A stretch of DNA of 64,000 bases from a virus (lineage: Duplodnaviria; Heunggongvirae; Uroviricota; Caudoviricetes). The notes beneath the pieces are model-generated. The model was not told where the DNA came from. It saw only the letters and a list, made by a program, of their open reading frames with translations, and searched no databases. The stretch's first letter is position 1, and every line of letters starts with the position of its first letter. Positions 12,194-62,796 of the stretch are shown piece by piece. The translations under genes were made by a program, and so were the position numbers. The stretch covers positions 64,001 through 128,000 of IMG/VR virus record IMGVR_UViG_3300031999_000001. One strand, given 5' to 3'.

Positions 12194-12751
12194 TTATATA
12201 AAATTTTGAATTTCTTCTTTAATTATGTTAATTAATTTATTATTTTCAAGCAATGTTAAATCACCCTGATTTGCTAAATAAATATTAAATGTTATGTTAT
12301 TTGAAATTTGATTCCTAATACTTTCATATGATTCAATATCGATATCTCTATCTTCATAAACATTTATTTCAATTAAATCCAGTAATTTATTGATATAATC
12401 AAGAATTCTTTGCCCCTTTGTTTTTTCATTACGTTTCATATCAAGTTTATTGACGTGAATTTTATTTACATCAAGAATTGCTTGTACCTGTGGTCGTAGT
12501 TTTTCCATACGTGATGTAAGAATTATCACATAGGTGTTTGGAATTGTTTGTTCTTTTTTCAATTGATTTAATACACTTGGAAATGGTTTAATATCAAAAA
12601 CATTTAAATCTAAACTTTCTGGTCTGCCCCACCATCCGAGATATGGATGTGGCTTTCCCATTTTGTCTGCCCAAGCAACCTTTCCGATTTCTTTTTCAGG
12701 AGAATCAATTAAGGTCCCATCAAAATCAAATGCACAAAATCTTCTTATCAT
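12194..12751 (-). CDS. HAD-family phosphatase (Swiss-army-knife RNA-repair/Pnkp-like)
   Basis: Motif I FDFDGTL, motif II ILTSR, motif IV YEDR. Confidence 0.7.
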   Translation of the reverse strand: MIRRFCAFDFDGTLIDSPEKEIGKVAWADKMGKPHPYLGWWGRPESLDLNVFDIKPFPSVLNQLKKEQTIPNTYVIILTSRMEKLRPQVQAILDVNKIHVNKLDMKRNEKTKGQRILDYINKLLDLIEINVYEDRDIDIESYESIRNQISNNITFNIYLANQGDLTLLENNKLINIIKEEIQNFI

Positions 12752-12752
12752 T

Positions 12753-13136
12753 TTATTTAAATTCTACTTCGGTCACTTTTCCTGTTATTAAAAGTGGTCT
12801 TTTCATTTTTTTCCAATCAGTTAATTTATTGGACATTACTGGTTTGCCACCAATTTCTTTATTTACTGCCAGTGTTATATGTGGTTTGGAATTATCACTT
12901 TGAAAACCACTAACACCAACCGCTATTACTTTATCATCCATAGCTACGTCCCTAACTACCAGACGTACTGGTAATCCTAAAAATCTTTCAAATTCTGGGT
13001 CAATTTCACCCATATTAATTGTCATATGATGTGCAACGATTTCCCAATCTTCAGGAATCATGCTTTTAAATCTTTCGATTAACCTTTGTTTTGATTTGTC
13101 GTCAAGAACGACAGCACTATATGATATATTACCCAT
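12753..13136 (-). CDS. 2H phosphoesterase (tRNA-ligase cyclic phosphodiesterase-like)
   Basis: YSAVVLD, two HxT motifs (AHHMTIN, PHITLAV). Confidence 0.7.
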   Translation of the reverse strand: MGNISYSAVVLDDKSKQRLIERFKSMIPEDWEIVAHHMTINMGEIDPEFERFLGLPVRLVVRDVAMDDKVIAVGVSGFQSDNSKPHITLAVNKEIGGKPVMSNKLTDWKKMKRPLLITGKVTEVEFK

Positions 13137-13792
13137 TAGTAAGTATATTCTGTCAATACATTATAATTTTTACCCAATGCAGTTAATGCAATTTCAACCT
13201 CTTTGAAGCATTCATTGATACCACCACCGCATATCACCAATTTTCCCCCAAATCTTTGTAGATAATCCATTAGGTCAGGAATATTTATCATATCTGATGC
13301 TGCTTCAAGTAAATCTCTAACAGCACTGGAATCATATCCATATTCTGTCATAAAACCATTCCACATTTCTTCATCGATATCTCGGCTATCATTAATGTTG
13401 TTTTGAATCATGTATTTTACCAGATTTACTGTTTCTTCTTCTTCAATGCCTTCATCCATACAATATCTGAAAAAAGCATATCCTTTGTCATAAAATCTGG
13501 CAGAATCCAAAACTTCTTCCTGCAATCCATTTTCATAAAGCCAATCCCTGTACCCAGCTTCACTTACCATTCCCAGAGTGTCTTGACCATTGTACAGAAA
13601 AGTCAATGAATTCATAACGTCAATGTTTTTATTTAAAAACATTATGAATGAATCCAGATTAAAGGTAATATAACTTTCATATTCAGGTTGAATATCGACA
13701 GATATAAAATTTGCACCCTGTACGAGATTTATTCCTGAATTTTCAAGTAATTTATTACGCTGTTGCTCCTTTAGTAATCGTTCCTTTTTCAT
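13136..13792 (-). CDS. Isochorismatase/nicotinamidase-like cysteine hydrolase fold protein
   Basis: FISVDIQPEY near the N-terminus and LVICGGGINEC near the C-terminus match the D...G..xxC layout. Confidence 0.4.
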   Translation of the reverse strand: MKKERLLKEQQRNKLLENSGINLVQGANFISVDIQPEYESYITFNLDSFIMFLNKNIDVMNSLTFLYNGQDTLGMVSEAGYRDWLYENGLQEEVLDSARFYDKGYAFFRYCMDEGIEEEETVNLVKYMIQNNINDSRDIDEEMWNGFMTEYGYDSSAVRDLLEAASDMINIPDLMDYLQRFGGKLVICGGGINECFKEVEIALTALGKNYNVLTEYTY

Positions 13793-16700
13793 TTAAAACT
13801 TCTCTGTCCGTTAATGCCCAAAGTAATGTTTGTTTAAGTTTTTCATCATGACTGAAATCTTCATAATTATTTTGAAAAAATTCCAGTACTGATTCTTTAG
13901 ATGGGTCTGGATATCCCGGTTTACCACCTTGATTATTCCATTTATCATATTTTTTTATGAAAAAATTAATTCCAACACTTTTACCATTCACCAAATATTT
14001 TTCATATTGAATTTCATTATATTCTTTTAATATGTTTTTTTTGTTTAACATTAATTTTTCTCCCTCATCACCTCTTTGACCTTTAGTTGAAAATACTAAT
14101 TTAGTGCCTCTTATTACTCTTTCTTTTTCAAATAATTTAATATATTTTTTGCCACTACCTGATTTAACATAACCAATTGTTATATGTGGATGATATATTG
14201 GAAAACTTGTGGTATTTGGTAATTGCCTCATAATACCATTCAATTTTGTTAATTCTTTTGAATTAATATCAAATTTAACCACATCAAATTCTGGGTTTCT
14301 GAAAACAGAAATACCAGTAACATGAACATCAATTGGTTTTAATTGCATGTTTTCTTTAAACAATTTAAATACATCATCTGCTGTAACTTCATAATGAAAA
14401 CCATATAAAATCGATAAATGTGGCTCGGTTTCAATGCCATACCCTTCTTTATCATAAATATCGTTTTTATCAATTACTGATGTTATTTTATTCCAATTTA
14501 AAATATCAAAAAATAACATTAAACATCCATACTCGGTTCTTTCACTGGTTCTTTCATTAAGCACGTCACTATTTTGATTTACTAAATTTAACAAATCTTC
14601 TCGATTGTTTTTAATTTTATTTGCATAAATCTTAAGCAATAATGATTTTTGCATATCACCAATTGCTTTATCTTTTAAACCAAGTTCCATCAAATCATTA
14701 CCATTTATTGCCAATTCATTTACTGTTTTTGGATACTTACCTTGAATTAATTCTTGTGCTCCATTTTGAATTATATTGGGTAAAATCTTGCTTTGAAGTG
14801 ATTGTTGTGATGTTACGTACATATTATGTGCAATTGATCTTGCTTCAATGGAATTTGTTGATTCACCATTTTCAAAAGCCATATCAAGTGCCTTAATTTC
14901 TTTATATGTATCAATATCACCCTTTAAATTATTTTTATAAAATTCCGCAGGATTATCAACAAGATTATTGGAAAGTAACCAAATAAATTCTCCCATTGTT
15001 TTTGCATTTTCCCATACATTTCTACCCATTAATAAACCAGCATCTTTACCAAAAATTTCTCTCCTTAATCCAGTTTGTTTTAATAAAATTGCACCTGATA
15101 ATTTATTGCTCTTTTTAACAATTTTATCAAATTCTGTCAAAATTCTTTCGGGCGAAATTTCTTTAATTCTACTTGCATTATCCTTAATCATTTTCATTGT
15201 TTCTGGTTCAATGGTAAAACCAAAACGACTGGCAAAACTGATCATTCTTATCATGCGGAGAGGATCATCCGAAAATGCTTCTGGATTAGCTGCAGAAATT
15301 TCTTTATTTTTTATATCTTCTAATCCACCTAATGGGTCAATAAATTTACCCGTATTTAAATTTATTGCCATTGCATTCATTTTTGCGTCACGCCTAATTA
15401 ATTCATCCTCAATTGGAAGATTTTCATCACTTTGCACATCAAATCCACGATATCCACCCTCGCCTGTTGGTTGTTCTTTACGTGGTAATGCTATATCATA
15501 ATCAGTACCATCTTTATCAATAAATTTTAATACTCCAAATGATTTACCAACAACATCAATTTTACCAAATTTTTGTAAATGTGAAATTAATGTATCAATA
15601 GGTACTTTTCCAACAACCAAATCAATATCCTTATTTGGTTTATTAAGTATGAGATCACGAACAACCCCTCCAACAACATAAACATCCGATTTTAAATCAT
15701 TTATTAATGATTGTATAAATTGTTTTTGTTTCAAAATAGTAATAAAATTATTCAATATTAATTTAGCTTCATTGATATTATTTAAAATTACGTTTGCTTC
15801 ATCAATATTAACATTTGGCTTTGTGAATTTTCTAACAAATACATTAAAAATTGCATTTGCTATATTACGTCCAGTACCTTCTTTTACTTTTTGTCTGAAT
15901 ATTGTTTCGGCTTTATTGGCAATTTCATGTGCTTTATCATATGAAAAATCATAATATTTCATTAAATGTCTTTCAAGTTTTTCATGAAGAATATCGCCTT
16001 CTATATCATTTGGTTTTACAAGAAACACATCATCAATCCAAATTTCATCTTCTGGAATGTTTTTTGCATATTGTTGTTCACTTTCAGGGTTTTTAGCATC
16101 AACATAATAATGTCCACCATCAACAAATTTAATAAATCCACTATCTTTAACTGCATCACCATTAACTGCTATTATTTTAAAATCATTTTCTTTACGAATA
16201 AGAACTTTATTAAGACTATGTGTTATTGCATCTTTTGCAATTTGTTTTTTAAAATCAACTGCAGTTTCCTGTTCTGCTAAATCATTATAATCATCCGATG
16301 ATTTTTCAGGCATGACTGGAACTTTATTACCATATCTTTTATTTATAAATTTTTCAATTGATGCATCACTATAATCTAAAAGTTTTCCAATTTCTCTTGC
16401 TTCTTCAGGTGTGTTATCTTGTAAATATCCACCATGTTTTTTTATGATTTGATATAGTTTTTCGGCTTTATCTTTATTACGATAAACAAGATGCATATTT
16501 AAATCATGATGTGATTGTTCTATTTTAATTAAACCCAAACCAGCTTCAATTACAATATCACGTAATCTTGGAGTTAATATAACCATTGCAACATCTTTTC
16601 TTCCTTCTAAAACTGCTTTAAGTGTACCCTCTTCAGTATATGCTTCACTTGCATCAATTTCTTCAGATATTACATTTCTTTTAATTAAAACCAAATATCC

Positions 16701-19670
16701 ACCATCACCATCTTCTGCAATAATTTCACCAGTTAAATCAAATTCATTAATATCTGAAAAATCCGACTCATTTGAATATCTTTTTGCATCTTCAAATGTT
16801 TTTGTTACCCAGACAATATCACGAGCATTATATTTATCAAGTTCAGCTAATTTTTCCTCAGTAATATGTGCAAAATCACCCACATTTCCCAATTCATCTC
16901 TTTCAAATCTTACCACATCACCAGCAGTTGTATTACGTGAATTACTAAAATTAGAATCCACACGATATGCTTTTTCACTAAATTGTTTATTCTCACGTTC
17001 AGTTACTTCATTAATAACTTTTTCAACAATTTTTTTCAAATCCAAATTATTAATATCACCTTGATTGCATGCAACACTGGTATTGCCCAATCCACCCAAT
17101 CTACATTTCTTTTTTACTGTAACAGTTTGTGCACCGGGCATATATGATAACTTTCTTTCAGTCATAATATATTCATCTTGTGTTGCATCACTAACATAAT
17201 TATATTCTAAATCTTCATTAGTTGGTGGAACATTATTATCAGTAATTGGTGATGTATCATTTTGATTATATGGTGGAAATTCATCCTGACCAATTGCATT
17301 ATCAGTTGAATATCTGGAACTTCCATCTTCTTCAATTTCTACTTTTTGTGGTTCTTGAAATTGTGTTGATGTTAAATCACCAAATCCAATATCAAAAAAA
17401 CCCAAATTACCGTTTTTTTTATACCCTAAATTTGATGTATTAATATAATCCATGCTTTCAATACCATACTTATGTACTTCGTCAGCAATACCTAATAATC
17501 CATAATAAAATTTAGCATCTTCTGGATTTTTTGACATGTATCTATCAATTACGGATTTCTTATCATCATATTCTCCTTGCACATAATCATCAAGAATATG
17601 ATTAAAATCCAAACCTAATATATTTTCAAATGCATAATCTAATCTATCAACAATTCTGTCAAAATACGGCTCGTTTATTTTTAATTTTTCAACAATAATT
17701 ACGTATGATTCAGGAATTGTAGAACCAGATTTTGGATTTATTTGATATATTTCATATATATTGGCAAGATGTTTTAATTCTTTTCCTCTTATTTTTAAAC
17801 CTTCAACTGCCTCACTTTTATCTGAAGTTACTTTCATTATCAAATCATTACCAATATTATATGCAAAACCATGAGTACCCTGACCAGCATATTTCATGTG
17901 TTTATATTGATTTATTTGAACAATTTTACTTCCAATTCTATCGGCAGTTTGTCTATCAAAATTTTCTAAAATATTTTCTTTACCTTCAGGTAAATATATA
18001 ATATTTTTTGATTCAATTGATGGTTCTTCAGCACCATACCCACCAATATCAAAAAATTTTAATACACCATCTTTATATCCTAAATTTGATGGATTACCGT
18101 AATCCCATGATTTAATACCATATTGTATTAATTCTTGAGATATATTGATTATGCCAATAAAATAATTATATGTTTTATTTCTGTCTTCAGTTGTAATATT
18201 AGCTTCTGAATTGTCAATTAGTATATGATTTGCAATATCAATTAATTCCTGATATTCTATTTTACGTTTTCGCATTTTAATATAAACACTTGTAATATCC
18301 AAACCATTTGGTAATATCGTATCAAAAATATTTTCATATTTATGAAATTCAGATATTGGCTTATCAACAACATTTTCTTGAAGTATTGCAAAAAATGTTA
18401 AATTTTTTTCGGTATCAACAATTTTATAAATTGAATATATTTTAGCAAGATATTTTGGATTTTCTCTTAATATTTTAACCCCAGCATCTGCTTCACTAAC
18501 ATCTGCAGTTATTTTTAATATTGTATTATTATTAATAGTAAATGCATGACCATTTGAACCACCCGCTAAATGTTGTGGTTGACCTAAATTTATTTTAAGG
18601 GCAAGTTCATTTGCCAATTCAATTGAATAATTTATGTCATCTAATGAAAATGGGCGTACTTTAGGAATTTCATTTTCATTTATTTCATATTCTTCTTTAA
18701 TTAAACGTTCTCTATCATATGCGTTTTGAGAAATTAAATATTCCTGAAGACTTAATAAGTTATTATAAAATTGTTTTTTATTATTAACATGTTTAAATGT
18801 TTCTTTAAGATTATTCACACATTCATGAAAAAGGTCTATAACATATGGCATACTTGGTAATGGTTTTGTTGGATATTTATCTCTATCAAGTACAAATGAA
18901 ATAAAATCTTCATTTATAACACCTTCACCATCACCAACACCATAAGGAATTATTGCCCACATTCCATGTCTTATTTCACCAGTATCACCAATATCAGAAA
19001 GTATATCATCATTGCCATCAGCACAATCATATAATTCATATAATTCATATTTTTTCTTTCTATCGGGGGAATAATGTGTATCGTACACATCTTTAGTTAA
19101 TCCATAATCGGTTAATACAACAGATGGAATACCACCACGAATTACTTCGCCATAAGTGCTTATTCTATTTAAATCACCGGGGGTTTGACTATAATCCATC
19201 AAAAAATTAGCAATTCTTTGTGTGAATTCTTCATCATTATCCAATTTTTCTTTTATATCTGGCTCAATACTAAAAAAACCTTTATGACCATGATTTTCTT
19301 CATAAAAATTTTTTAAATATGCATAAACATCCCAAATTTTAAAACCAGTTATTTCACCAAATCTTTTTTCGGTTATTTTTTTTGCCTTTTCTGCAACAAG
19401 CCAAGTACTATCATCAGCAGATTCATAAATATTTGTTAAAATATCGTCATAATCTTTATATCTTGCAGCCTGTTCTTCTACCTCATTTTGTGCAATACCT
19501 TTTTGATTTTTTGCTAATTTAAAAACTTTAATACCATCAATATCATATGCAATTCTACCACTACCAGTACCAATTTTTCGTAAATTTTGATTAGCATAAT
19601 CAATTTTTTTCCTAAATGATTGTATTTTACGAAATTCATTTAAGAATTTTAAGAAATCATTATAAGTCAT
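13755..19670 (-). CDS. 1971-aa multidomain (polyvalent) protein: 3 kinase-like domains, possible ART-like, DUF483-like and HExxE domains, CCA-adding/poly(A) polymerase domain, 2H phosphoesterase
   Basis: Kinase loops GTGSGR, GGSNG, GQGTHG with TDYG/FDIG; NTase VYVVGGVVRD..DIDL, RRD, DPLGG, DDPLRM; 2H motifs EPHLS and PHIT. Confidence 0.75.
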   Translation of the reverse strand: MTYNDFLKFLNEFRKIQSFRKKIDYANQNLRKIGTGSGRIAYDIDGIKVFKLAKNQKGIAQNEVEEQAARYKDYDDILTNIYESADDSTWLVAEKAKKITEKRFGEITGFKIWDVYAYLKNFYEENHGHKGFFSIEPDIKEKLDNDEEFTQRIANFLMDYSQTPGDLNRISTYGEVIRGGIPSVVLTDYGLTKDVYDTHYSPDRKKKYELYELYDCADGNDDILSDIGDTGEIRHGMWAIIPYGVGDGEGVINEDFISFVLDRDKYPTKPLPSMPYVIDLFHECVNNLKETFKHVNNKKQFYNNLLSLQEYLISQNAYDRERLIKEEYEINENEIPKVRPFSLDDINYSIELANELALKINLGQPQHLAGGSNGHAFTINNNTILKITADVSEADAGVKILRENPKYLAKIYSIYKIVDTEKNLTFFAILQENVVDKPISEFHKYENIFDTILPNGLDITSVYIKMRKRKIEYQELIDIANHILIDNSEANITTEDRNKTYNYFIGIINISQELIQYGIKSWDYGNPSNLGYKDGVLKFFDIGGYGAEEPSIESKNIIYLPEGKENILENFDRQTADRIGSKIVQINQYKHMKYAGQGTHGFAYNIGNDLIMKVTSDKSEAVEGLKIRGKELKHLANIYEIYQINPKSGSTIPESYVIIVEKLKINEPYFDRIVDRLDYAFENILGLDFNHILDDYVQGEYDDKKSVIDRYMSKNPEDAKFYYGLLGIADEVHKYGIESMDYINTSNLGYKKNGNLGFFDIGFGDLTSTQFQEPQKVEIEEDGSSRYSTDNAIGQDEFPPYNQNDTSPITDNNVPPTNEDLEYNYVSDATQDEYIMTERKLSYMPGAQTVTVKKKCRLGGLGNTSVACNQGDINNLDLKKIVEKVINEVTERENKQFSEKAYRVDSNFSNSRNTTAGDVVRFERDELGNVGDFAHITEEKLAELDKYNARDIVWVTKTFEDAKRYSNESDFSDINEFDLTGEIIAEDGDGGYLVLIKRNVISEEIDASEAYTEEGTLKAVLEGRKDVAMVILTPRLRDIVIEAGLGLIKIEQSHHDLNMHLVYRNKDKAEKLYQIIKKHGGYLQDNTPEEAREIGKLLDYSDASIEKFINKRYGNKVPVMPEKSSDDYNDLAEQETAVDFKKQIAKDAITHSLNKVLIRKENDFKIIAVNGDAVKDSGFIKFVDGGHYYVDAKNPESEQQYAKNIPEDEIWIDDVFLVKPNDIEGDILHEKLERHLMKYYDFSYDKAHEIANKAETIFRQKVKEGTGRNIANAIFNVFVRKFTKPNVNIDEANVILNNINEAKLILNNFITILKQKQFIQSLINDLKSDVYVVGGVVRDLILNKPNKDIDLVVGKVPIDTLISHLQKFGKIDVVGKSFGVLKFIDKDGTDYDIALPRKEQPTGEGGYRGFDVQSDENLPIEDELIRRDAKMNAMAINLNTGKFIDPLGGLEDIKNKEISAANPEAFSDDPLRMIRMISFASRFGFTIEPETMKMIKDNASRIKEISPERILTEFDKIVKKSNKLSGAILLKQTGLRREIFGKDAGLLMGRNVWENAKTMGEFIWLLSNNLVDNPAEFYKNNLKGDIDTYKEIKALDMAFENGESTNSIEARSIAHNMYVTSQQSLQSKILPNIIQNGAQELIQGKYPKTVNELAINGNDLMELGLKDKAIGDMQKSLLLKIYANKIKNNREDLLNLVNQNSDVLNERTSERTEYGCLMLFFDILNWNKITSVIDKNDIYDKEGYGIETEPHLSILYGFHYEVTADDVFKLFKENMQLKPIDVHVTGISVFRNPEFDVVKFDINSKELTKLNGIMRQLPNTTSFPIYHPHITIGYVKSGSGKKYIKLFEKERVIRGTKLVFSTKGQRGDEGEKLMLNKKNILKEYNEIQYEKYLVNGKSVGINFFIKKYDKWNNQGGKPGYPDPSKESVLEFFQNNYEDFSHDEKLKQTLLWALTDREVLNEKGTITKGATA
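14080..14540 (-). other. 2H phosphoesterase domain within the polyvalent protein (approximate bounds)
   Basis: YGCLMLFF...EPHLSILYG...YHPHITIGYV. Confidence 0.7.
14590..15720 (-). other. Class II tRNA nucleotidyltransferase / poly(A) polymerase-family domain (approximate bounds)
   Basis: GGxVRD, DIDL, RRDAKMNAMA, DPLGGLEDI, AFSDDPLRMIR, ISPERI. Confidence 0.85.
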
Positions 19671-19695
19671 ATTTTGAATATTTTATGATATAATC

Positions 19696-19703
19696 ATAAA
19701 TAC
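19696..19703 (-). promoter_or_regulatory. Putative late-promoter motif GTATTTAT
   Basis: 25 nt upstream of the polyvalent gene start; a TAAGTTTG host-type -7 element abuts it at 19703..19710. Confidence 0.45.
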
Positions 19704-19742
19704 AAACTTAACCATAAAAATTAAAGTGATACTATGCAATTA

Positions 19743-28036: not shown

Positions 28037-30862
28037 TTATTTTTTATGTTTTTCTTTAATTTTATTAATTACTTCACCTAATACCGATTCTTCAATATTT
28101 GATTTATAATCTTCGTTATCCATTACTTTAACAATTTCTTTACGCTTGCTTTCAATAGCTGAAAATACATAATCATCGATAGTATCTCTAAAAATTAATG
28201 GATAAATATTTACAATTGCTTTTTGACCAATTCTATGAAGACGATCAGAAACTTGGTCATAATCACCCACGCTGTATGGTAATGTTATTAAAAATAATTT
28301 ACTTGCTGCTGTTAAAGTCAGACCATATCCACATGTTTGTATTGAACCTAAAAAAACTTTCATGCTACTATTTGGGTCTTGAAATGTTTTAACTATTTCT
28401 GCACGTTCTTCATCAGTTTGGTCACCAGTATGTAATCCAGCAATATCACCAAGTTTTTTCTTTAATTGTTGTATTGATTCTTTAAAAAAATCAACAACTA
28501 CAATTTTTTCGCCCGTTTCTAAAATATTCTCAATTAATTCAATAACTGGTTTGATTTTTAAATGTGATGTATATTGTCTTAAACGCAACATTGTTGTTAA
28601 CGGATTCCCATTTGGATGCATCACAAAATCATTTGCAACACCCTCTTCAATTTCATTGTACATATCATATTCATTTTCTTCCATTTCCAACATAACTCTC
28701 TGATAAATTTTATCTGGAAGGTCTTTCAAAACCTCAAATTTTCTTTTTCTATGTGTGAATGGTGCAATTTTATGATAAAGTTCTTCAAATTTTGCTTCTA
28801 CATTATCAGTTATATAACCCCAACCACCATAAATATCATAAGACATTCCACAATAATATTCCATAAAATATTTTTTTGTGGCAAAATCTATTGGTGATAT
28901 TTGATTTAAAACTGTATATAATTCATGCGCTCTATTGGGAGCAGGAGTTCCTGATAAGAAAATTTTACTAATTTTTTCGTTTTTAAATATTGTTTTATTA
29001 AATATTCTTTTAAAATTTTTATAAGTATTGGCTTTTGTATTTTTCAATTTTGCACACTCATCTGCAATAATCACATCAATTTTATTAAGTTTTAATTTCT
29101 CCCATTTTGTTAAAAATTTTTCTTTATTACTTGAATTAAAAAAATCATAATTGATTATTATATATTTAGCATCTTCAATTGAACATTTATTTTTTCTCCA
29201 ATTTACAATATGTGAATTACTTTTTGTAAATTTTTCGACTTCATTATAAAAATTAAATTTTAATGAGTTTGGAGTAATAACCACAACTTTTTCAAAATTA
29301 TTCATTTCAACATAAAGTATTGCCGAAAGTGTATTATGTGTTAATATACAGTGGTCTATAACATATAATTGGTCTTTAGAATCAACCATAATGCATTGTG
29401 CCTCTTTTTTTCCAACATATTTAACACCAGAAATTGCTCTATTAGGTAAATATTTTGTTGGTGCTATAAAATTATTAATTTTTCTTTTTAATTTAAACGG
29501 TATAAATTTTGATGGTAATTTGATATATAATCTATAATATAATCTTTTTTCTCCATTATACATCACCCACTTATCATGAAGTCTTCCAATACCACCTAAT
29601 GATTGAACAATAAATTGAACATCATCAATTAATTGTTTTGATGCCAATGTTATTTCAATAAATCCTTGTCGTTTGCTTACATGACCATCAGTATCTAAAA
29701 TACCTTGTAATAATTCTAATCTTTGATTAATTGATGCAAATTTAAAATCATTTGGAATAAATTTGGTGTACGAATTACATCCCTTTAAATTATATATTTT
29801 TAATGCTTGATTAATATAATTATTTTTACCATCAGCAGTCAAATAATAATCTTTTAAAGATTTTCCATTATGCACCATATTATGATTATTAGGTAATCTT
29901 ATTGTAATTTCATCAATAATTTCTTTGTCAAATGAACTAAAACCAATACCATTTAATACAGTTATACTTCCATCACCTAAGATACAACCTAATACATAAG
30001 GATTTATCTTTAATTCTTTTTCTTCAAATTCGATTGGTTTAACTATTGGAATATAATGTTTATGATTACCATTTTTAAATGTCAATCCTTCATTCATTAT
30101 TTCATTTAATGTTTTGGTCATAAATGGATTTTTTCTCCAATTTCTAATATATGTATTTACATTCCATAAATGTTCATCACATGATTGTGCTGAAGTACCG
30201 TCATTAAAACAAACTTCATATATATCTTTTATTCCTTGCGGATAGACACCTAATACTTTTTTCGGTTTACCATCACTTCCAATTACAAAATTACCTACTT
30301 TTATATCACCCATTTTAATCCATCCATTTGGTGTAAGTAATTTAGAATCAAGCGGATTCGCTTTTCCTGTCCCCATCTCGTGGGAAATCAATGTGTTACG
30401 TGTAACATTCATAAACATTGCAGCTACAATTTGATGAGGATAAAGTATCACTCCTTCATTTACCAATGCATGCATTTTATCTGAATATTGAATATAATTT
30501 TGTTCAAGTTCCAGTTTATATTTAACCCAATGTTCTTTTTTAATATTTAAATCAGCAATGAATTTACGTTTTTCTTCTTCGGCAATTTCTATTTTTTTAA
30601 TTTGTTGAATAAAAACTTTTCGACTATCTTCGTTTCCAAAATCAAAATGAATTTTATTTGAACCCTTATATTTTTTAATAAGAGATAATAACGATGGTGT
30701 TGTGACTTCCCATGCCATATCCATTGCGTTCCATTTTCTTGTTTCTTCTGGAAGGTCTTTTATGCGTTTAACAAGCTGGTCATTATAAAAAAATCTCAGA
30801 TAATATGCTAATCTTCTTGAGATTCGTTCGCAATGCACCGTGAAAACCGATAGTTCTTGCAT
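28037..30862 (-). CDS. SNF2-family helicase with HARP-like N-terminus, interrupted by an intein
   Basis: LYPHQ, HEMGTGK/T, ITPNSL, DECAKLKN, LSGTPAPN, GYGLTLTAA, QVSDRLHRIGQ. Confidence 0.85.
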   Translation of the reverse strand: MQELSVFTVHCERISRRLAYYLRFFYNDQLVKRIKDLPEETRKWNAMDMAWEVTTPSLLSLIKKYKGSNKIHFDFGNEDSRKVFIQQIKKIEIAEEEKRKFIADLNIKKEHWVKYKLELEQNYIQYSDKMHALVNEGVILYPHQIVAAMFMNVTRNTLISHEMGTGKANPLDSKLLTPNGWIKMGDIKVGNFVIGSDGKPKKVLGVYPQGIKDIYEVCFNDGTSAQSCDEHLWNVNTYIRNWRKNPFMTKTLNEIMNEGLTFKNGNHKHYIPIVKPIEFEEKELKINPYVLGCILGDGSITVLNGIGFSSFDKEIIDEITIRLPNNHNMVHNGKSLKDYYLTADGKNNYINQALKIYNLKGCNSYTKFIPNDFKFASINQRLELLQGILDTDGHVSKRQGFIEITLASKQLIDDVQFIVQSLGGIGRLHDKWVMYNGEKRLYYRLYIKLPSKFIPFKLKRKINNFIAPTKYLPNRAISGVKYVGKKEAQCIMVDSKDQLYVIDHCILTHNTLSAILYVEMNNFEKVVVITPNSLKFNFYNEVEKFTKSNSHIVNWRKNKCSIEDAKYIIINYDFFNSSNKEKFLTKWEKLKLNKIDVIIADECAKLKNTKANTYKNFKRIFNKTIFKNEKISKIFLSGTPAPNRAHELYTVLNQISPIDFATKKYFMEYYCGMSYDIYGGWGYITDNVEAKFEELYHKIAPFTHRKRKFEVLKDLPDKIYQRVMLEMEENEYDMYNEIEEGVANDFVMHPNGNPLTTMLRLRQYTSHLKIKPVIELIENILETGEKIVVVDFFKESIQQLKKKLGDIAGLHTGDQTDEERAEIVKTFQDPNSSMKVFLGSIQTCGYGLTLTAASKLFLITLPYSVGDYDQVSDRLHRIGQKAIVNIYPLIFRDTIDDYVFSAIESKRKEIVKVMDNEDYKSNIEESVLGEVINKIKEKHKK
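29333..30361 (-). mobile_element. 343-aa class 3 intein with LAGLIDADG homing endonuclease, inserted in the Walker A motif
   Basis: GTGK|ANPLDSKLLTP...ILTHN|TLSA; Ala1, block B EHLW, block F QCIMV, block G THN, Thr+1; endonuclease motifs LGCILGDG and LQGILDTDG. Confidence 0.9.
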
Positions 30863-33224: not shown

Positions 33225-36200
33225 TTAACAAACTCTTCTTACTCTTACTGAACCAAATGTTGCACATGCAGTACCACTTGTTTCCCAAAACCAAACGTCA
33301 AAACAATGTGTACCTGCTGATAATGTGGTGTTTTTTGTTATTGCTGCTGATTGTACTGCAGATGCAGTTGACATTTTAAATAATAAATTTTTACCAACTA
33401 CGGTATTGTCAATACCAAATTTGATATTTGCTTCATTATTTGCACCAGTAACACCAAATACCCCACTAAAGTCTACTGCATACATACCTGCTGGCATTGT
33501 TGTTCCAGTTACACCAATATATTTGCAACATGTCGTAGTAGCATTTGTAACATCACCACTACGGTCAGCATATAAATATGCATTAGGTGCAGTTGATTGA
33601 ATATAATTCACACATAATGTACATGCAGTTGGATTATAAACCATTCCAGTATTACCAGTTAATACACAAGAAGTACTACCGAAGACAACCTGACATGCAC
33701 CAACTGAAGATAATTTAGTTGCGCCACTAACATTAAGTGTTGAAGCAATTGTCAAACCACCAGTCATGATATCGCCAGTTTTGGCTACCCTTGAAGTATC
33801 ACGTGGATGCACATGGTCTTGCCTACTGAATAAATTCGATGTACCAATTGCAACGGCAGCATTCATTAGAGGATTTGCAGTACCTGCTTGACTTATATAC
33901 CATGAAGTACTTGCTGCACAACTTGTGTTGTCATTCTGTGCTGCTTTACAAACATTCAATACACCAGTCATTGTACCACCACTAAGGAATAATTTAGCAG
34001 TATCTTTTGGATGTACATGGTCTGCATGTGCCCATCTTAGCGATGTGCCAATTGCTGCAGTACCATCCATTACTGGTGTTGTGTTTCCACTCTGACCGAA
34101 ATACCATGCAGTTGTTGCAATGCAAGTACTATTATCATTTGCTGCAGGGGTAACTGACCTAACAGTTCCAGTGAAAGTCGGACTGGCAATATTTGCCTTT
34201 AATCCAATTGCAGTTGAAGTATTACCACTGTAAGTATTAAATGCACTTACTGCTAATCTACTTGTATCGCTTGGATGTACATGGTCTTGTTTTGTCCATA
34301 AAGACGATGTACCAACTGCTGCAACACCATCCATTAAAGGACTTGCTGTTGCACATTGACCTATATACCATGCAGTTGTTGCAATACAAGTACTACTATC
34401 ATTAATAGTAGGAGTAACTGACCTAACCGTTCCAGTGAAAGTCGGACTTGCAATGTTTGCCTTTAACCCTATTGCTGTTGAAGTTGCGCCTGTATAAGCA
34501 TTTATCTGAGTCTTGGTATAATAAGTATTTGGAACAGTAGTTCCGGTGTATAAATTAAATGCAGATTTACTTGCAAATTGTCCGGGAGCAGTTGTTCCGG
34601 TATAAGTACTGTAAATCGAAGTCAATAATCTGTTGTTGATTGCAGTATTTGTAGTACCAGTATATGAACTAAATATACTTGTATTAAGTTTAGAATTCAA
34701 TGCAGTATTAAGTGTACCACCTGTAGTATTAACAGCAAATTGACTACCTACCCATGAAAGGCTATTTCCAGCAAGTGCACTACCACAAACACTTAATACA
34801 CCAGTATTGTATGCCAAACCAGTTCCAGCAATTGCTGAATTAACATATAAACCAGTACTGTCTGAAATTAATCCGCAGTTACTTGGTAATTTAACTGCTA
34901 CGTTGTAGTTTCCACCACTTTGTGTTACACAAATACCATTACCTGCAACAACACCCGATGCTGAAGCAAATAATACGAAGTCTGATGCATCAACACCAAC
35001 AGTTATTGGGTCAGTTGCACTTAATATCCATGAAGTATTTTTATTGGTATTACCACTGATAATAGCCATGTATGATTGAAATGCTGTGCTACCACTTGCG
35101 TAGTCTGTTGCACGTGTCATTGTAGCACCACTGCCATTATAAATATATATACCGTTTGCAGTAGCACCAGTTTGATTTTTAACAAGTATTCTTGAACCAT
35201 TTGGTGCTATAATTCCATCAATTGTTGCAGGAGCACTGCTTAAATTAATGTTTGTTGTTGTTGCAACCACAACTGCTTGTTTTGGTTCTAAGCCACCACT
35301 GTGACTATCAACATATTCTTTATCAACCAATGAACGATTTGTGAATGTCGCACCATAATTCTGACAGTATTCAATACCATGTGGTACTGCACGACTATCT
35401 GAAAATAATGCTTGTGATTGACTTATGCTTAAAAGTGTTGCATCTGTACCACCCGATGTTCTACCACGTAATGTAATTGTACCACCACTACTAAAAATAT
35501 TAATATCTTTACCTTCTGCATCATAGATATCAGTACCGTTAAATGATGAAATTGTAAATTTCTTAGCGCATAAATGGAAATTATATCCACCTGCGCCAAC
35601 TGTTGTATCTTCAGTTAATAAACCACCTAATTTAACACGGTGGCAATCTGCTTTGCTTATACCGTTTGTTGCACCAGTAACTGTTGTTTGTAAATGTGTA
35701 ACAGTACTTGCAGTATACGTATTGAAATCACTTCTTGAAGTTAATAACGGGTTAGCAGTACCACCACTGTACCATATTAAATTGCATAAACTCGTACCAA
35801 TCAATGTTGTATTAACAGGCAAATTAGGACTACCCGTAAATTGTGGACTTTCTAAGAAAGCAAAAGTTTTTCTTGCACTTCCGGTTGTAATTGTACCGTA
35901 ATAAGCATCAGTAAGAAATTCTACTGCACCCGCTTGAGTTGTACTGAGCAATGTTCCACTTGTGAATTTTAACGGTGCTATTGTACTTGTACCCGCCTTT
36001 AGTGTTATTGTTGCGGATGGTGTAATGCCAAAACCAGTACCTGCTTCGGATATCCTCACCTTTTCAGTTAGTGTAGAATTATTTGCTGTCTTGAATACAA
36101 TATCCGCATAACAAGTAATACCATTACCAGTATAATAAGTTTCAATCGATGTAAGCGTAGTACCGAGATTGTTAACACGTGCTCTTGAACAGATATGACT

Positions 36201-39200
36201 GATATTATCACCATTTAGTACGCTTGTAGCAACATCTAACGTACCTCTGGTTTTTGCAATAGCAATACCACCACTAATTGCATCATCACTTGACAACCTG
36301 ATTCTCATGTCAACTTCAGAACTACAATTTGAATCTATTTCAAATAAACTATTACTCAATCCACAAGTCACATCAACAGAATTACCGCAGTTAATTTGTA
36401 ACATATTGCTACCACTAACATTTCCACCACCAATATTCGTTCTACCAAGACTATCAACATAGAAACTCGGTTTGAAGTCAGATGGCGAAGTTAAAACTGC
36501 AAGTCTGTAGTTACCACCACGTGCAAAACTATTTGCAATTGGGGCAACAGTAGCATTGGTTGTAGTTCTTAATCTTATCCAATATAATAAATAACCGTCT
36601 TTTACTAAATTTGACATGTATGCTGGTATCCAACCTGTCATACTTGAAGTTTCCCAAGTGATATTACCACTTCTGATTAAATTAAAAGTATTGTCAACAT
36701 AAGCATTATTGTTTGCAGTTATATTCACCCAAGTATTACCACTCAAATATTCGGCAATTAATGTCACACCCAATGCATGATTATCAAGGTTGACAAATAT
36801 ACTGTTGAGTTTATCAAGTGTTCCAAAATATATTGCATTGTTCGTTACACCAGTGTTGAACATTGTAATTACACTGCCATATGTACTACTGTTTGCTTCA
36901 GCAGTAACATCAGTATATGTAATTGCACTTGCAGTATAGTTCAATGTTTGCTGAACCTCAGTAAATCTGTTTGGAGTTATTACGAATGTTCCTATTGGAA
37001 GTTGTGCAAATGCCCCAAACACATATGTTGTACCCAAAGTATGACCAGTTAATTTATCAAACCTAACACTTACACCATATTGGATTTCAGTTGGTACATA
37101 ATCTAAATTAATACTTGCTGACCAACCACCAAAGGTCTGACCTTCATCAGTACTTGCTCTCCAATGGAAAGTATCTGTTGCACCAGTAATTGTATCAATT
37201 TCAATCTGATAAATACCTGTGTAGTCTTGAGTATAATATCCACTAACCTTCAAATCATTCGGACCGCCTGTTTCAAGCAGGGCATGATATGCCATGATGT
37301 TGGTTTGGTTATTAACACCGACTCTACCCGTATCTGAAACCGTTAATTGGTTGATATGACCCTGTGGACTACTTAAATACCAGAATTTACCGTTTTCGCA
37401 CCTGTAAATTTGTGCAGCAAACTTAGGCACACCCTCAGATGCCCATTGAATATCTTTATCAGTGTTAAACGTACCGTCAAGTCTTATGCCGTTAGTCTGA
37501 TAGTTCCAACCATCACCCTCAACAGCATTAGCACCATATAAATGTACCAATGTTTCTGGTATAACAGTACCAAAACCTGTGAAACCACTTTTTGAATTAA
37601 ACGTTACCAAAACAGTTCCACCAGTTGCACCGATGATTTTTAAAGTATCCAAACCATCATTCAAAGGCTGAATTGTATTTGTCTTAACACCATCAGCATA
37701 TAGTGTACCTGCTGGTAAGAAAACATTACCAGTGAAAACAGGGTCATTTAAATATGCAAAAGTCTGACGAGTATTGCCAGTATCTGTAATATATGTGAAA
37801 AAGCCATCAAATTCCATTGCACCTGCTTGTGGACTACTAAGTAAACTGCCTTGGGTAAATTTCAAAGGTGCAATTAAACTTGTACCAGCCTTTAATGTTA
37901 TAACTGCAGTTGGTGTTATGCCAAAACCATTTGTACCATTTGCAGCAAATCTTACTTTTTCACTTGGATTTCCACCACATGCAGTATTAAAAGTTATATC
38001 TGCAACCTGTGAACTACCATCACCAGTATATTGTGCACAAATATTTGCTAATTCTTTACCTAATGTTCCAATACGACCTCTGTATCTAACAAGACCAATT
38101 GTATCACCATTTACAATACCTGTTGGTATATCTAATGTTCCTCTTGATTTAAATAAAGTAAAAGCACCACCACAAGCATCATTACTACTTAATTTTATTT
38201 TAAAATCAACCTCACAACTGCATTGTGAGTCAATTTCAACCAAACTATGATTTGCACTTGCACTTGGCTGTACAAAACCTTCCTTATTTATTTGAAGTAA
38301 GTTTGTATCAGTAATATTACCACCACCGATGTTCACACGACCTAATGAATCAACATAATAACTCGGACGATAATCATTGAATGAATTATAAACACTAAAT
38401 CTTTTATCATTGCCAACACTTATTGTATGTGCTTCAGGTGCAATAGTAGGATTAGTACTTGTACGAATTCTTATCCAATATAATTCAGAACCTTCTTTAG
38501 TTAAATCAGGTATAAATGCTTTCACCCAACCAGTCATGTGGTTTGGTGTCCAAATGATTCGACCAGACTTTGTTAGGTTTTCAGTAGAATCGATTAAACC
38601 GTAATCATTAAAATTCATTGCAATCCATGAAGTACCGTTCCAATATTCAGTAATAAGCACAATACTTGCACCAATTTGGTGCAAGTTGAAGAATATTGAA
38701 TTTATTTGTACTGTTGTACCCCAATAAAATGCCTGTAGTGTTCCACCAGTACCAGTATCGAAAACCGTGAATTTACTGTCGTAAAATCCACCGTTTGCTA
38801 ACGCAGTTAAGTCTTGATATGTAATTGTTGGTGCAAGATAATCATCTGTATGTTGAACCTCTGCAAAACCCATTGGTGCAAGACTCAGTGTTGCTTGAGG
38901 AATTTGTGTAAATGCACCGAATTCCCAGATATTACCAACAGTATGTCCATTTACACTACCAAAGGCAATATAAACACCAAATTCAATAAGTGTTGCACCT
39001 GTTGTACAAGCACTCAATGGTGAATAACTACCATAAGTTACACCGCCATCAATACTTTTCTTCCACTTCCATTCATCTGTTGCACCTGTGCTTGCTATTT
39101 CAATACGATACACTGCATTATAATTCTCGGTATAATTACCACTGATTGTTAAGTCAGATAAACCCGTACCGACAATTTGAGCAGCATCATCATCTATTAA

Positions 39201-40109
39201 ATTAGTATTTTTATTTATACCAATTCTACCTGTTTCCATTACAGTTAATGGACTGTTTTCTGCTTCGACATTATATAGATACCAAAACTTAGAACCTTCA
39301 TTACGATATGTCTCACCCAACCATTTAGGTATACCATTTTCTGCCCACTGAATATCCGCATCAACATTTGAAGGTCCGTCAATAATCAAGGCATTCTTTT
39401 GTGTACTTAATGGATTGTCTTCGTTGGCATCTGTTCCATATGCATGAACAACACCTTGTGGTGCAATAGTACCAAAGCCAGTTAAGCCTGAGACAGTATC
39501 GACATTAATTATTACAGTACTACCATTGGCTTTACGAACTTGTATTGCAGTAATTGTATCACCTGTTGGTCTGATTTTATTTATAATTAACCCACCATTG
39601 AATGTACTTTCAATTGTTGTAATTGCACCTGCTGTAGTAACTTGTTGTAAATTTGAAGTACCAGTAACATTAATTATATTATTATTAATTGAAATGCCCG
39701 TTCCACCACTTAATTTACTGGTTAAATTATTATATGAATGTGTATGTCCTGTTTGAAATCTTTGTAATGTTGTACCTGATAACCACGCTGGTTTCGATAT
39801 TATTACTGACCAACTTGGAGTATTTCCTGAAACCTTATTATCAACATATCCTTTATCAACTAATGAACGATTTGTAAAACTTGCAGAATAATCACCACCA
39901 TATTCAATACCAGCAGTATTTCCAGCACCTTTTGTTATTGTTGTTACACAAGTTAAAACACCACCAAGTTTAACCTGACGTAATCCAACTCTTGTTAATC
40001 CATTATTTGCTGTTGTAATACCAGTAAAGGTAGTCATACCACTATTGGTAAAATCCCCATTAAATAAATATTGATTACCAGTTAATAAATCTATTGCAAA
40101 TGTTGCCAT
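33225..40109 (-). CDS. 2294-aa tail fibre-like protein with internal duplications
   Basis: G/T/S-rich; two ~630-aa copies; three DHVHP repeats; ATT..IDG..RILVKNQ..NGIY module. Confidence 0.75.
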   Translation of the reverse strand: MATFAIDLLTGNQYLFNGDFTNSGMTTFTGITTANNGLTRVGLRQVKLGGVLTCVTTITKGAGNTAGIEYGGDYSASFTNRSLVDKGYVDNKVSGNTPSWSVIISKPAWLSGTTLQRFQTGHTHSYNNLTSKLSGGTGISINNNIINVTGTSNLQQVTTAGAITTIESTFNGGLIINKIRPTGDTITAIQVRKANGSTVIINVDTVSGLTGFGTIAPQGVVHAYGTDANEDNPLSTQKNALIIDGPSNVDADIQWAENGIPKWLGETYRNEGSKFWYLYNVEAENSPLTVMETGRIGINKNTNLIDDDAAQIVGTGLSDLTISGNYTENYNAVYRIEIASTGATDEWKWKKSIDGGVTYGSYSPLSACTTGATLIEFGVYIAFGSVNGHTVGNIWEFGAFTQIPQATLSLAPMGFAEVQHTDDYLAPTITYQDLTALANGGFYDSKFTVFDTGTGGTLQAFYWGTTVQINSIFFNLHQIGASIVLITEYWNGTSWIAMNFNDYGLIDSTENLTKSGRIIWTPNHMTGWVKAFIPDLTKEGSELYWIRIRTSTNPTIAPEAHTISVGNDKRFSVYNSFNDYRPSYYVDSLGRVNIGGGNITDTNLLQINKEGFVQPSASANHSLVEIDSQCSCEVDFKIKLSSNDACGGAFTLFKSRGTLDIPTGIVNGDTIGLVRYRGRIGTLGKELANICAQYTGDGSSQVADITFNTACGGNPSEKVRFAANGTNGFGITPTAVITLKAGTSLIAPLKFTQGSLLSSPQAGAMEFDGFFTYITDTGNTRQTFAYLNDPVFTGNVFLPAGTLYADGVKTNTIQPLNDGLDTLKIIGATGGTVLVTFNSKSGFTGFGTVIPETLVHLYGANAVEGDGWNYQTNGIRLDGTFNTDKDIQWASEGVPKFAAQIYRCENGKFWYLSSPQGHINQLTVSDTGRVGVNNQTNIMAYHALLETGGPNDLKVSGYYTQDYTGIYQIEIDTITGATDTFHWRASTDEGQTFGGWSASINLDYVPTEIQYGVSVRFDKLTGHTLGTTYVFGAFAQLPIGTFVITPNRFTEVQQTLNYTASAITYTDVTAEANSSTYGSVITMFNTGVTNNAIYFGTLDKLNSIFVNLDNHALGVTLIAEYLSGNTWVNITANNNAYVDNTFNLIRSGNITWETSSMTGWIPAYMSNLVKDGYLLYWIRLRTTTNATVAPIANSFARGGNYRLAVLTSPSDFKPSFYVDSLGRTNIGGGNVSGSNMLQINCGNSVDVTCGLSNSLFEIDSNCSSEVDMRIRLSSDDAISGGIAIAKTRGTLDVATSVLNGDNISHICSRARVNNLGTTLTSIETYYTGNGITCYADIVFKTANNSTLTEKVRISEAGTGFGITPSATITLKAGTSTIAPLKFTSGTLLSTTQAGAVEFLTDAYYGTITTGSARKTFAFLESPQFTGSPNLPVNTTLIGTSLCNLIWYSGGTANPLLTSRSDFNTYTASTVTHLQTTVTGATNGISKADCHRVKLGGLLTEDTTVGAGGYNFHLCAKKFTISSFNGTDIYDAEGKDINIFSSGGTITLRGRTSGGTDATLLSISQSQALFSDSRAVPHGIEYCQNYGATFTNRSLVDKEYVDSHSGGLEPKQAVVVATTTNINLSSAPATIDGIIAPNGSRILVKNQTGATANGIYIYNGSGATMTRATDYASGSTAFQSYMAIISGNTNKNTSWILSATDPITVGVDASDFVLFASASGVVAGNGICVTQSGGNYNVAVKLPSNCGLISDSTGLYVNSAIAGTGLAYNTGVLSVCGSALAGNSLSWVGSQFAVNTTGGTLNTALNSKLNTSIFSSYTGTTNTAINNRLLTSIYSTYTGTTAPGQFASKSAFNLYTGTTVPNTYYTKTQINAYTGATSTAIGLKANIASPTFTGTVRSVTPTINDSSTCIATTAWYIGQCATASPLMDGVAAVGTSSLWTKQDHVHPSDTSRLAVSAFNTYSGNTSTAIGLKANIASPTFTGTVRSVTPAANDNSTCIATTAWYFGQSGNTTPVMDGTAAIGTSLRWAHADHVHPKDTAKLFLSGGTMTGVLNVCKAAQNDNTSCAASTSWYISQAGTANPLMNAAVAIGTSNLFSRQDHVHPRDTSRVAKTGDIMTGGLTIASTLNVSGATKLSSVGACQVVFGSTSCVLTGNTGMVYNPTACTLCVNYIQSTAPNAYLYADRSGDVTNATTTCCKYIGVTGTTMPAGMYAVDFSGVFGVTGANNEANIKFGIDNTVVGKNLLFKMSTASAVQSAAITKNTTLSAGTHCFDVWFWETSGTACATFGSVRVRRVC
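33780..34470 (-). repeat. Three tandem xxAWY...DHVHP repeats
   Basis: Near-identical DNA at 34151..34205 and 34415..34469 (264-bp period); third copy more diverged. Confidence 0.8.
35830..39580 (-). repeat. Large internal tandem duplication of about 1.9 kb
   Basis: DIQWAENGIPKW vs DIQWASEGVPKF and KAGTSLIAPLKFT vs KAGTSTIAPLKFT, each offset by about 1.9 kb. Confidence 0.8.
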
Positions 40110-62718: not shown

Positions 62719-62723
62719 TTTCG

Positions 62724-62796
62724 TAGCGGGAGAGGGATTCGAACCCCCGACCTTGACGTTATGAGCGTCACGAGATACCACTTCTACCATCCCGCA
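62724..62796 (-). tRNA. tRNA with CAU anticodon, initiator-like body, no encoded CCA
   Basis: TGCGGGA/TCCCGCT+A, TGACG-CTCATAA-CGTCA, AGGTC, GGGGG-TTCGAAT-CCCTC; imperfect D-stem. Confidence 0.85.

Follow-up and report, generated by a model that had tools for sequence, protein, structure and literature searches.

A multi-enzyme polyprotein of T4-like jumbo phages that joins minimal kinases, a CCA-type nucleotidyltransferase and a 2H phosphoesterase, with circumstantial signs of processing and packaging

The window analyzed here, 64,000 nucleotides of low-GC (~27%) phage DNA spanning positions 64001 to 128000 of a 200,057-bp viral record (IMGVR_UViG_3300031999_000001, hereafter G000; CheckV completeness 61%), carries nearly all of its genes on the minus strand. 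Among them is P0001, an uninterrupted open reading frame (ORF) with an ATG start that encodes 1971 amino acids (aa) at 13755..19670 (minus strand, stop codon included) and that was shown to be a string of separately folding modules: K1 with K1b, K2, K3, M4, M5, an NleE-like module, a module with an HExxE motif, a CCA-type nucleotidyltransferase, a 2H phosphoesterase, and M10. A preliminary description of the window, made from sequence alone, had proposed a single multidomain protein of this length, and the ORF is indeed a genuine gene, open throughout; the plus-strand ORFs within the same interval are short and run contrary to the strand bias. The gene is a fixed locus of one clade of T4-like jumbo phages (roughly 320 to 370 kb) with a shuffled interior. 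We give about an even chance to the proposal that it encodes a modular precursor that is processed and packaged by this T4-related clade. The modules are distributed as follows.

13755..19670, minus strand: whole ORF P0001, 1971 aa
19635..19670, minus strand: N-terminal leader, aa 1-12, MTYNDFLKFLNE; family consensus MTYxEF..(F)LxE, resembling the capsid-targeting sequence MKTYQEFIAE of T4 IPII/IPIII
19056..19634, minus strand: K1, aa 13-205, protein-kinase-like; G34xG36xG38R, K51, E65, D166, and D188-Y-G conserved
18675..19055, minus strand: K1b, aa 206-332, helical; recognized by Foldseek against Swiss-Prot and a weak phmmer match
17985..18674, minus strand: K2, aa 333-562, minimal protein-kinase-like; G371, G374, K386, E393, D523, N529, and D541 conserved
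17328..17984, minus strand: K3, aa 563-781, paralogue of K2; K613, E620, D741, N747, and D760 conserved
17022..17327, minus strand: M4, aa 782-883, acidic stretch modeled with low confidence, then the motif best conserved across the family
16662..17021, minus strand: M5, aa 884-1003, small alpha/beta domain; Y902-R903-V, W954..K957, and D987-G-D-G-G-Y-L invariant
16272..16661, minus strand: M6, aa 1004-1133, NleE-like, matching NleE over its C-terminal two thirds
15798..16271, minus strand: M7, aa 1134-1291, beta sheet plus helical bundle; H1229, E1230, E1233, H1248, N1252, and E1255 invariant
14553..15797, minus strand: CCA module, aa 1292-1706, class II tRNA nucleotidyltransferase; GGVVRD 1334, DIDL 1348, RRD 1426, GGLED 1448, DDPLR 1468
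14022..14552, minus strand: 2H phosphoesterase, aa 1707-1883; HLS 1751, HIT 1829
13788..14021, minus strand: M10, aa 1884-1961, conserved C-terminal module; LNE at 1959-1961 conserved

The module borders were drawn from 206 long relatives and, for residues 1 to 1200, from 2363 representatives, whose homology start and stop points were mapped, together with two alignments (A1, residues 1 to 885; A2, residues 880 to 1300), a separate C-terminal alignment, and structure models of residues 1 to 885 and 880 to 1300 (mean predicted local distance difference test [pLDDT] scores of 81 and 84, respectively). Over residues 1 to 1300, the homology break points coincide with low-pLDDT linkers, and 163 long relatives share a common scaffold; it is for these two reasons that the modules are regarded as separate. 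Pfam and PHROGs recognize only the C-terminal third of the protein: no Pfam match was found in residues 1 to 1290 at E values up to 1, and a phmmer search of residues 1 to 880 against PDB yielded only a nonsignificant match to the insulin receptor. Five of the eight domain labels proposed earlier (three kinases, the nucleotidyltransferase, and 2H) proved right and a sixth, DUF483-like, right at the superfamily level, while those of an ART and a zincin found no support; the domains listed were all present as modules, yet K1b (206 to 332), M4 (782 to 883), and M10 (1884 to 1961) had been missed. The motifs that had been singled out in the middle block were recovered in place (YRVDS 902, WVTKT 954, EIGKLL 1093, HEKLE 1229, AHEIAN 1247), each within its own conserved module. 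As to whether structure prediction supports separate folds, three kinase folds and separate middle domains were modeled, with no named fold for M5 or M7; since the two models covered residues 1 to 1300, with M5 and M7 as parts of one block, the lack of fold matches for M5, M7, and M10 counts as weak evidence.

Comparison of domain order across the 163 long relatives revealed the scaffold K1-K1b-K2-(K3)-M4-[variable block of 0 to 800 aa]-CCA-(2H and M10, in either order). M4 was present in 156 of these proteins, K1 in 135, CCA in 130, M10 in 83, the NleE-like module in 77, 2H in 55, M7 in 35, and M5 in 29; the inserts in the variable block of other relatives are ART-PolyVal, GNAT, ParB, or unknown. 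A search with an alignment of the M4 motif brought up 80 loci in IMG/VR, many of them on contigs of 320 to 371 kb. Of these 80, 63 to 74 preserve the gene order PolB - x - NUDIX - x - x - x - polyprotein - (x) - 2H - HAD - ParB-like - x - glycosyltransferase, which is why we speak of a fixed locus with a shuffled interior. The complete genome G002 (364.7 kb, with terminal repeats) encodes a 747-aa short form, M4-ART-CCA (L036, 9884-12127), with an ART-PolyVal-like domain and without kinases, that begins exactly where M4 begins in P0001, at the residue after the motif at 779 to 781. Two extra ORFs (169 and 239 aa) lie between the syntenic 2H and HAD genes of G002, the second of which is Cys-rich and mobile-endonuclease-like. 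The existence of shorter genes such as that of G002 might be taken to mean that P0001 is an assembly chimera or a set of adjacent genes merged by a wrong gene call. We consider such an artifact extremely improbable: there are no stops in 5916 nucleotides at 27% GC, and the same succession of modules across these junctions recurs in scores of independent contigs, which come from different samples. A chimera, named in the preliminary description as an outcome that would overturn it, is excluded because the collinearity of residues 1 to 885 extends to more than 50 independent relatives from metagenomes, with CCA downstream in 130 of the 163 long relatives. With more than 160 architectures, the family is an extensive natural record of modules exchanged at a single locus.

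The C-terminal third carries, as had been proposed, a class II CCA-type nucleotidyltransferase, a label that, by sequence alone, cannot be narrowed to CCA, CC, A, or poly(A) specificity. Pfam places its head (PolyA_pol, PF01743) at residues 1330 to 1458 with 74 bits (cut-off, 23) and its neck (PolyA_pol_RNAbd, PF12627) at 1484 to 1540 with 49.6 bits (cut-off, 22); the module also matches phrog_2244 (E value, 5e-58) and the Bacillus CCA-adding enzyme 1MIV (2.9e-24). The catalytic motifs GGVVRD (1334), DIDL (1348), RRDA (1426), GGLED, and DDPLR (1468) align to those of 1MIV, and the head and specificity motifs also to 6IBP. Head and neck motifs are conserved as in bacterial class II enzymes (1MIV, E value of 3e-24), whereas motif D reads DDxxR instead of EDxxR. 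The 2H phosphoesterase, likewise named before, matches Pfam 2_5_RNA_ligase2 (PF13563) at residues 1749 to 1836 only marginally (27.7 bits against a cut-off of 27) and also phrog_755, and it holds both of the HxT/S motifs expected of a 2H protein, HLS at 1751 and HIT at 1829.

The genomic surroundings of these two modules offer an RNA-repair context. Wherever 2H is present among the long relatives, it adjoins CCA, and CCA is the invariant partner of the two (130 versus 55 of 163). In 63 to 68 of the 80 loci, the genes immediately downstream are a HAD phosphatase and a small 2H-like gene; in the window, these are as follows.

12753..13136, minus strand: small stand-alone 2H-like gene, a syntenic neighbor whose G002 homologue reads HHMTI…PHITI
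12194..12751, minus strand: HAD phosphatase of the polynucleotide-kinase or "Swiss-army-knife" RNA-repair type, a syntenic neighbor recognized by weak matches

RNA ligases (PF09414 and PF09511) are encoded elsewhere in genomes of the clade. For RtcB, the record that contains the window gave only a subthreshold match of 15 bits, and four relatives gave no match. Outside the window and far from the polyprotein locus, a 304-aa ORF of the same record (G000:C1:17006-17512) contains an Rnl2/DNA-ligase-type RNA_ligase domain (PF09414; E value, 2e-14). The only tRNA found by ARAGORN in the 200-kb record is a tRNA-Met (CAT) at 62723-62796 of the window (minus strand), whose 3' end is followed by CGA, CCA not being encoded. 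The simplest reading of the C-terminal pair is tRNA 3'-end maintenance, be it repair after attack by host tRNases, maturation of phage tRNA, or both. Escherichia coli Cca is a similar fusion of a CCA polymerase to an end-healing phosphoesterase; its HD domain has 2',3'-cyclic phosphodiesterase activity. In P0001, by contrast, the phosphoesterase is a 2H and not an HD domain, and the pair is embedded in a chain of ~2000 aa.

Three kinases had been placed at about residues 24 to 197, 364 to 547, and 591 to 764, and structure searches confirmed a protein-kinase-like fold at 18 to 204, 340 to 549, and 573 to 769, with Foldseek in agreement against both PDB and Swiss-Prot; in the latter, tandem-kinase proteins (RSK, JAK) span two of the P0001 kinase modules. 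K3 is a paralogue of K2 (32% identity; E value, 4e-21), and in both modules conservation is 92 to 100% (80 to 95 relatives) at the Gly-rich loop, beta-3 Lys, alpha-C Glu, catalytic Asp, Asn, and DFG-type Asp, the K2 residues G371, G374, K386, E393, D523, N529, and D541 each being at least 97% conserved. K1 retains the full catalytic set except for the catalytic-loop Asn, which is replaced by Thr or Ser. All three modules thereby show the features that define the kinase superfamily (the fold, the Gly-rich loop, Lys, Glu, Asp with or without Asn, and the DFG-type Asp), and because the catalytic residues are conserved across relatives, K1, K2, and K3 look like active phosphotransferases. At ~200 aa each, K2 and K3 align only to the N-lobe through the DFG segment of solved kinases (PknB, 3-161; PIM1, 32-192), and they show the loss of the C-terminal subdomain with retention of the active site by which Iyer et al. 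(2017) recognized truncated kinases. Polyvalent proteins from phages of Bacteroidetes and Verrucomicrobia have been described as carrying kinases that lack this subdomain (PMC5512222); kinases this small with a full catalytic set are structurally interesting in themselves. The helical K1b comes after K1 in 132 of 135 relatives and has a weak phmmer match to the insulin-receptor kinase (E value, 0.15). Since a single structural match in Swiss-Prot (Q54SC4) covers residues 3 to 328, that is, K1 plus K1b, the latter is probably a remnant C-lobe of K1.

Between the kinases and the CCA module, M4 holds the motif that is best conserved family-wide, V.VKKKCRLGG.GNTS.ACNQGDI.NL...I.E, which was found in 198 of the 249 relatives collected. 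The module was modeled mostly with low confidence (pLDDT, 33 to 75). Its low-confidence part (window 17022-17327, minus strand) keeps the linear motifs EDGS..FST....GQD.FP.YN..DTSP … EDLEY … DAT.D, and such conservation within a seemingly disordered stretch suggests that it may be a peptide for binding and not simply a linker.

M5, the small alpha/beta domain marked by the conserved motifs YRV, WVTKT, and EDGDGGYL, had no match in Pfam or by sequence search of PDB, and its single PDB profile match, a designed TIM barrel, looks spurious. Comparison with the ART-PolyVal domain that occupies the same position in relative P0007 gave an hhalign probability of 1%, that is, no detectable homology. 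Atlas language-model scores to small viral clusters (0.87 to 0.90; PARP in 16% of one cluster and Arr-ms in 99% of another) were below threshold and are leads only, so the ART label formerly attached to residues 884 to 1003 is not upheld. A BFVD search with the model of residues 880 to 1300 returned only unnamed viral proteins, "ART-PolyVal-like" and "LPD" rows appearing at nonsignificant E values.

M6 is best described as NleE-like. Pfam NleE matched 18 of its 52 homologues (best E value, 4e-8), though not M6 of P0001 itself, and the family profile finds 4r29 at an E value of 7e-4; NleE was the best of the structure and sequence leads, among which DUF2023 and DUF483 models also appeared. In NleE, S-adenosylmethionine (SAM) is bound by R107, E191, and Y212 (PMC4239114), and at these positions the M6 family has R or K, E (51 of 52), and Y or F, with K1025 (beside R1024), E1090, and F1108 in P0001. 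Relative to the NleE/OspZ cysteine methyltransferases (4R29; PMC4239114), the first ~85 residues are missing. Given the NleE-family matches and the correspondence of the SAM-binding residues, the DUF483-like label had the fold superfamily right, NleE being the better match.

In M7, the invariant residues H1229, E1230, E1233, H1248, N1252, and E1255 form an HExxE…H…N..E motif and, judged by their conservation, probably make up a metal site. The zincin label for residues 1134 to 1291 was not supported, as the motif is HExxE and not HExxH and no zincin was among the listed fold matches, the latter being weak evidence in that residues 880 to 1300 were modeled as one block. AFDB and Atlas matches comprised only unnamed proteins of candidate phyla radiation (CPR) bacteria, DPANN archaea, and phages, and Peptidase_M78 was set aside as a candidate at an Atlas score of 0.80, which is chance level. 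Profile searches against PDB gave nothing usable for M7 or M10, nor did an Atlas feature search or the other searches of M10, a module that accompanies CCA in 83 of the 163 long relatives and ends in the conserved LNE. M5 and M7 are conserved domains without a family assignment; together with M4, M10, and the NleE-like module, they map candidate counter-defense domains across the family.

The case for a precursor begins at the joints. At every module border, an (I/L/V/M)-x-E motif is conserved in the relatives (A1, A2, and C-terminal alignment), namely, at 330-332 (84%), 560-562 (99%), 567-569 (82%), 779-781 (99%), 881-883 (98%), 1001-1003 (94%), 1131-1133 (76%; Glu, 94%), 1289-1291 (58%; Glu, 100%), 1704-1706 (94%), 1881-1883 (89%), and 1959-1961 (100%). 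With linker zones in residues 1 to 1300 defined solely by a pLDDT of <50, 7 of 17 conserved motifs fall in linkers that make up 11% of the sequence (binomial P, 0.0013), and all six linker zones contain such a motif (P of ~4e-5 by simulation). The protein also begins in a suggestive way: MTYxEF is the N terminus in 96 of 135 relatives, 95 of the 135 have an [ILVM]xE within the first 17 residues, and T4 ipII and ipIII, translated from NC_000866, both start with MKTYQEFIAE. In T4, these 10 residues suffice for targeting to the head (PMC9026906) and are then cut off by gp21 (PMC9026906, PMC3012670), which also processes both ends of the packaged enzyme Alt (PMC9026906). A prohead protease of the gp21 type (S77) was found above the Pfam cut-off in all five complete relatives tested. 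At G001:C1:214260-215930 (locus L085), the S77 match is split in two, ~1.2 kb apart within one 651-aa frame, which suggests that this gene carries an insertion, either an intein or an extra domain.

In its boldest form, to which we give somewhat less than an even chance, the proposal is that phages of this clade package a polyprotein to be cut into its units, whereby the DNA would be accompanied into the cell by enzymes for repairing tRNA 3' ends (CCA and 2H), by three minimal kinases, and by an exchangeable cassette (NleE-like, HExxE, ART, GNAT, and others). In the model of processing and packaging that we rate at about even odds, the chain would enter the prohead with the help of the leader resembling the T4 capsid-targeting sequence, of M4, or of both; the S77 protease would cut after the junction Glu residues to give pieces of ~80 to 415 residues; and these would be ejected with the phage DNA. 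Kinases and cassette domains might then modify host proteins, while 2H would open 2',3'-cyclic phosphates at tRNA 3' ends and the CCA enzyme would rebuild missing CCA, protecting translation against host defenses that target tRNA and perhaps also maturing the phage's own CCA-less tRNA. If true, no earlier case of tRNA repair delivered by a virion would precede it; RNA repair would be supplied premade before any phage gene is expressed, and the polyvalent proteins would have a member whose units are released by a T4-type prohead protease and not by a built-in peptidase.

Several observations weigh against processing and packaging. A search of the 61%-complete record that contains the window yielded no S77 protease (the control genomes were cellular and uninformative). 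The leader is modeled as a confident helix packed on K1 (pLDDT, ~90) and not as a free propeptide, no other ORF with an MTYxEF leader occurs in G000 or G002, and the short form of G002 lacks the leader. The gene sits among replication and nucleotide metabolism genes (PolB, NUDIX, SNF2, ParB-like) and not among head genes, a location that weighs little because the ip and alt genes of T4 are scattered as well. Because I/L/V, N, K, and E abound in so AT-rich a proteome, single motifs mean little; nor did Pfam detect in P0001 a MuF or MPTase domain of the described phage polyvalent proteins. The suggestion in the preliminary description that the effectors are delivered as one precursor gained support of a circumstantial kind, from the junction motifs, the N terminus, and S77 in relatives, and the same holds for cleavage, packaging, and ejection alike.

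Much of the same evidence could be accommodated by an unpackaged, cytoplasmic multi-enzyme protein, whole or otherwise processed, that is produced early along with the adjacent replication and nucleotide metabolism genes and acts as a hub of RNA maintenance: it would add CCA to CCA-less phage tRNAs and heal 3' ends with the neighboring HAD and 2H proteins, its kinases would act in trans on host or phage proteins, and the junction motifs would be conserved linker ends. The fixed synteny with PolB, NUDIX, HAD, 2H, and ParB-like genes, the tRNA-Met without encoded CCA, the frequency of stand-alone CCA enzymes in jumbo phages (PMC7824862), the leader modeled as part of the K1 fold, and the failure to find S77 in the incomplete record all fit such a protein. 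It accounts less well for a conserved (I/L/V)-x-E at every joint in linkers that are otherwise poorly conserved or disordered, for a start resembling the T4 capsid-targeting sequence, for the protease in five of five complete relatives, and for a swappable cassette (ART-PolyVal, GNAT, ParB, NleE-like) typical of injected polyvalent proteins, and we consider it rather unlikely. The 2H module could instead have a signal-degrading role like that of Acb1, in place of RNA-end healing. In its full form, this alternative holds that 2H, and perhaps other modules, chiefly destroy host immune nucleotide signals in the manner of T4 Acb1 or the poxvirus cGAMP phosphodiesterases, with CCA as a passenger in what is mainly a cocktail for anti-signaling and host modification. 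Pfam Acb1 (PF23474) does match P0001 weakly, at 16.3 bits against a cut-off of 27, and relative P0019 above the cut-off at 36.6 bits, with weaker matches in other relatives; the second HxT region of 2H has a weak phmmer match to the penguinpox cGAMP phosphodiesterase (E value, 0.07), and Iyer et al. (2017) argued that the 2H domains of polyvalent proteins are not linked to ligases and may target signals (PMC5512222). Yet the score of P0001 itself falls short of the cut-off, 2H, where present, always stands beside CCA, with a second 2H-like gene and an end-healing HAD phosphatase directly after, and it is CCA, not 2H, that is the invariant module; a mainly anti-signaling function is to our mind clearly unlikely.

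Polyvalent proteins, phage polypeptides that string together many conflict-type enzyme domains, are the described systems most like P0001, and its assignment to this kind of chain of separately folding modules was supported. Shared with them are truncated Ser/Thr/Tyr-type kinases that keep the active site and, in the cassettes of relatives, 2H, ART-PolyVal, GNAT, and ParB; delivery with the DNA and proteolytic release of the units were proposed for them, too (PMC5512222). Pfam, however, finds in P0001 no MuF, zincin MPTase (HExxH), ART-PolyVal, DdrB-ParB, or LPD domain. Iyer et al. (2017) listed truncated kinases, 2H, ART, GNAT, and ParB, with only minimal Pol-beta nucleotidyltransferases, these in conjugative elements alone, and no CCA-adding enzyme (PMC5512222), whereas P0001 has a full class II enzyme; the earlier impression that this domain combination had not been described holds in the literature searched. 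What is new in P0001 relative to described polyvalent proteins is its CCA-adding enzyme, its NleE-like module, the M4 motif, which is invariant, and the use of junction motifs of the T4 type instead of a built-in MPTase, with MuF absent as well. With the T4 internal proteins IPI to IPIII and Alt, the family has in common the N terminus (MTYxEF…LxE in P0001, MKTYQEFIAE in T4), cleavage-type (I/L)-x-E motifs, and a gp21-type S77 protease encoded by relatives, and Alt, itself an ART, is an enzyme that is packaged, trimmed at both ends, and injected. The T4 proteins are single-domain and receive one or two cuts, in contrast to the ~10 modules that would come from one P0001 chain, whose packaging we infer from sequence, and short forms of the P0001 family lack the leader.

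The genes upstream of P0001 on the same strand encode a family-B DNA polymerase, a SNF2 helicase with an intein, a NUDIX protein, and several unknowns; those downstream encode a 218-aa unknown, the small 2H-like protein, the RNA-repair-type HAD phosphatase, a ParB-like protein, and a glycosyltransferase. The ATG of P0001 is preceded by a 72-nucleotide AT-rich spacer (window 19671-19742) in which no Shine-Dalgarno-like sequence was found, a feature that would fit a host of the Bacteroidota type, and a scan for promoters and terminators showed no enrichment over shuffled sequences. The SNF2-family helicase (window 28037-30862, minus strand) carries its intein-like insert, a LAGLIDADG_3 domain (380-447) and a Hint fragment (184-226), between the halves of the SNF2 N-domain. 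In a 2294-aa ORF (window 33225-40109, minus strand), the sole recognizable part is a segment resembling head-decoration or virion-structural proteins (residues ~1583 to 1761).

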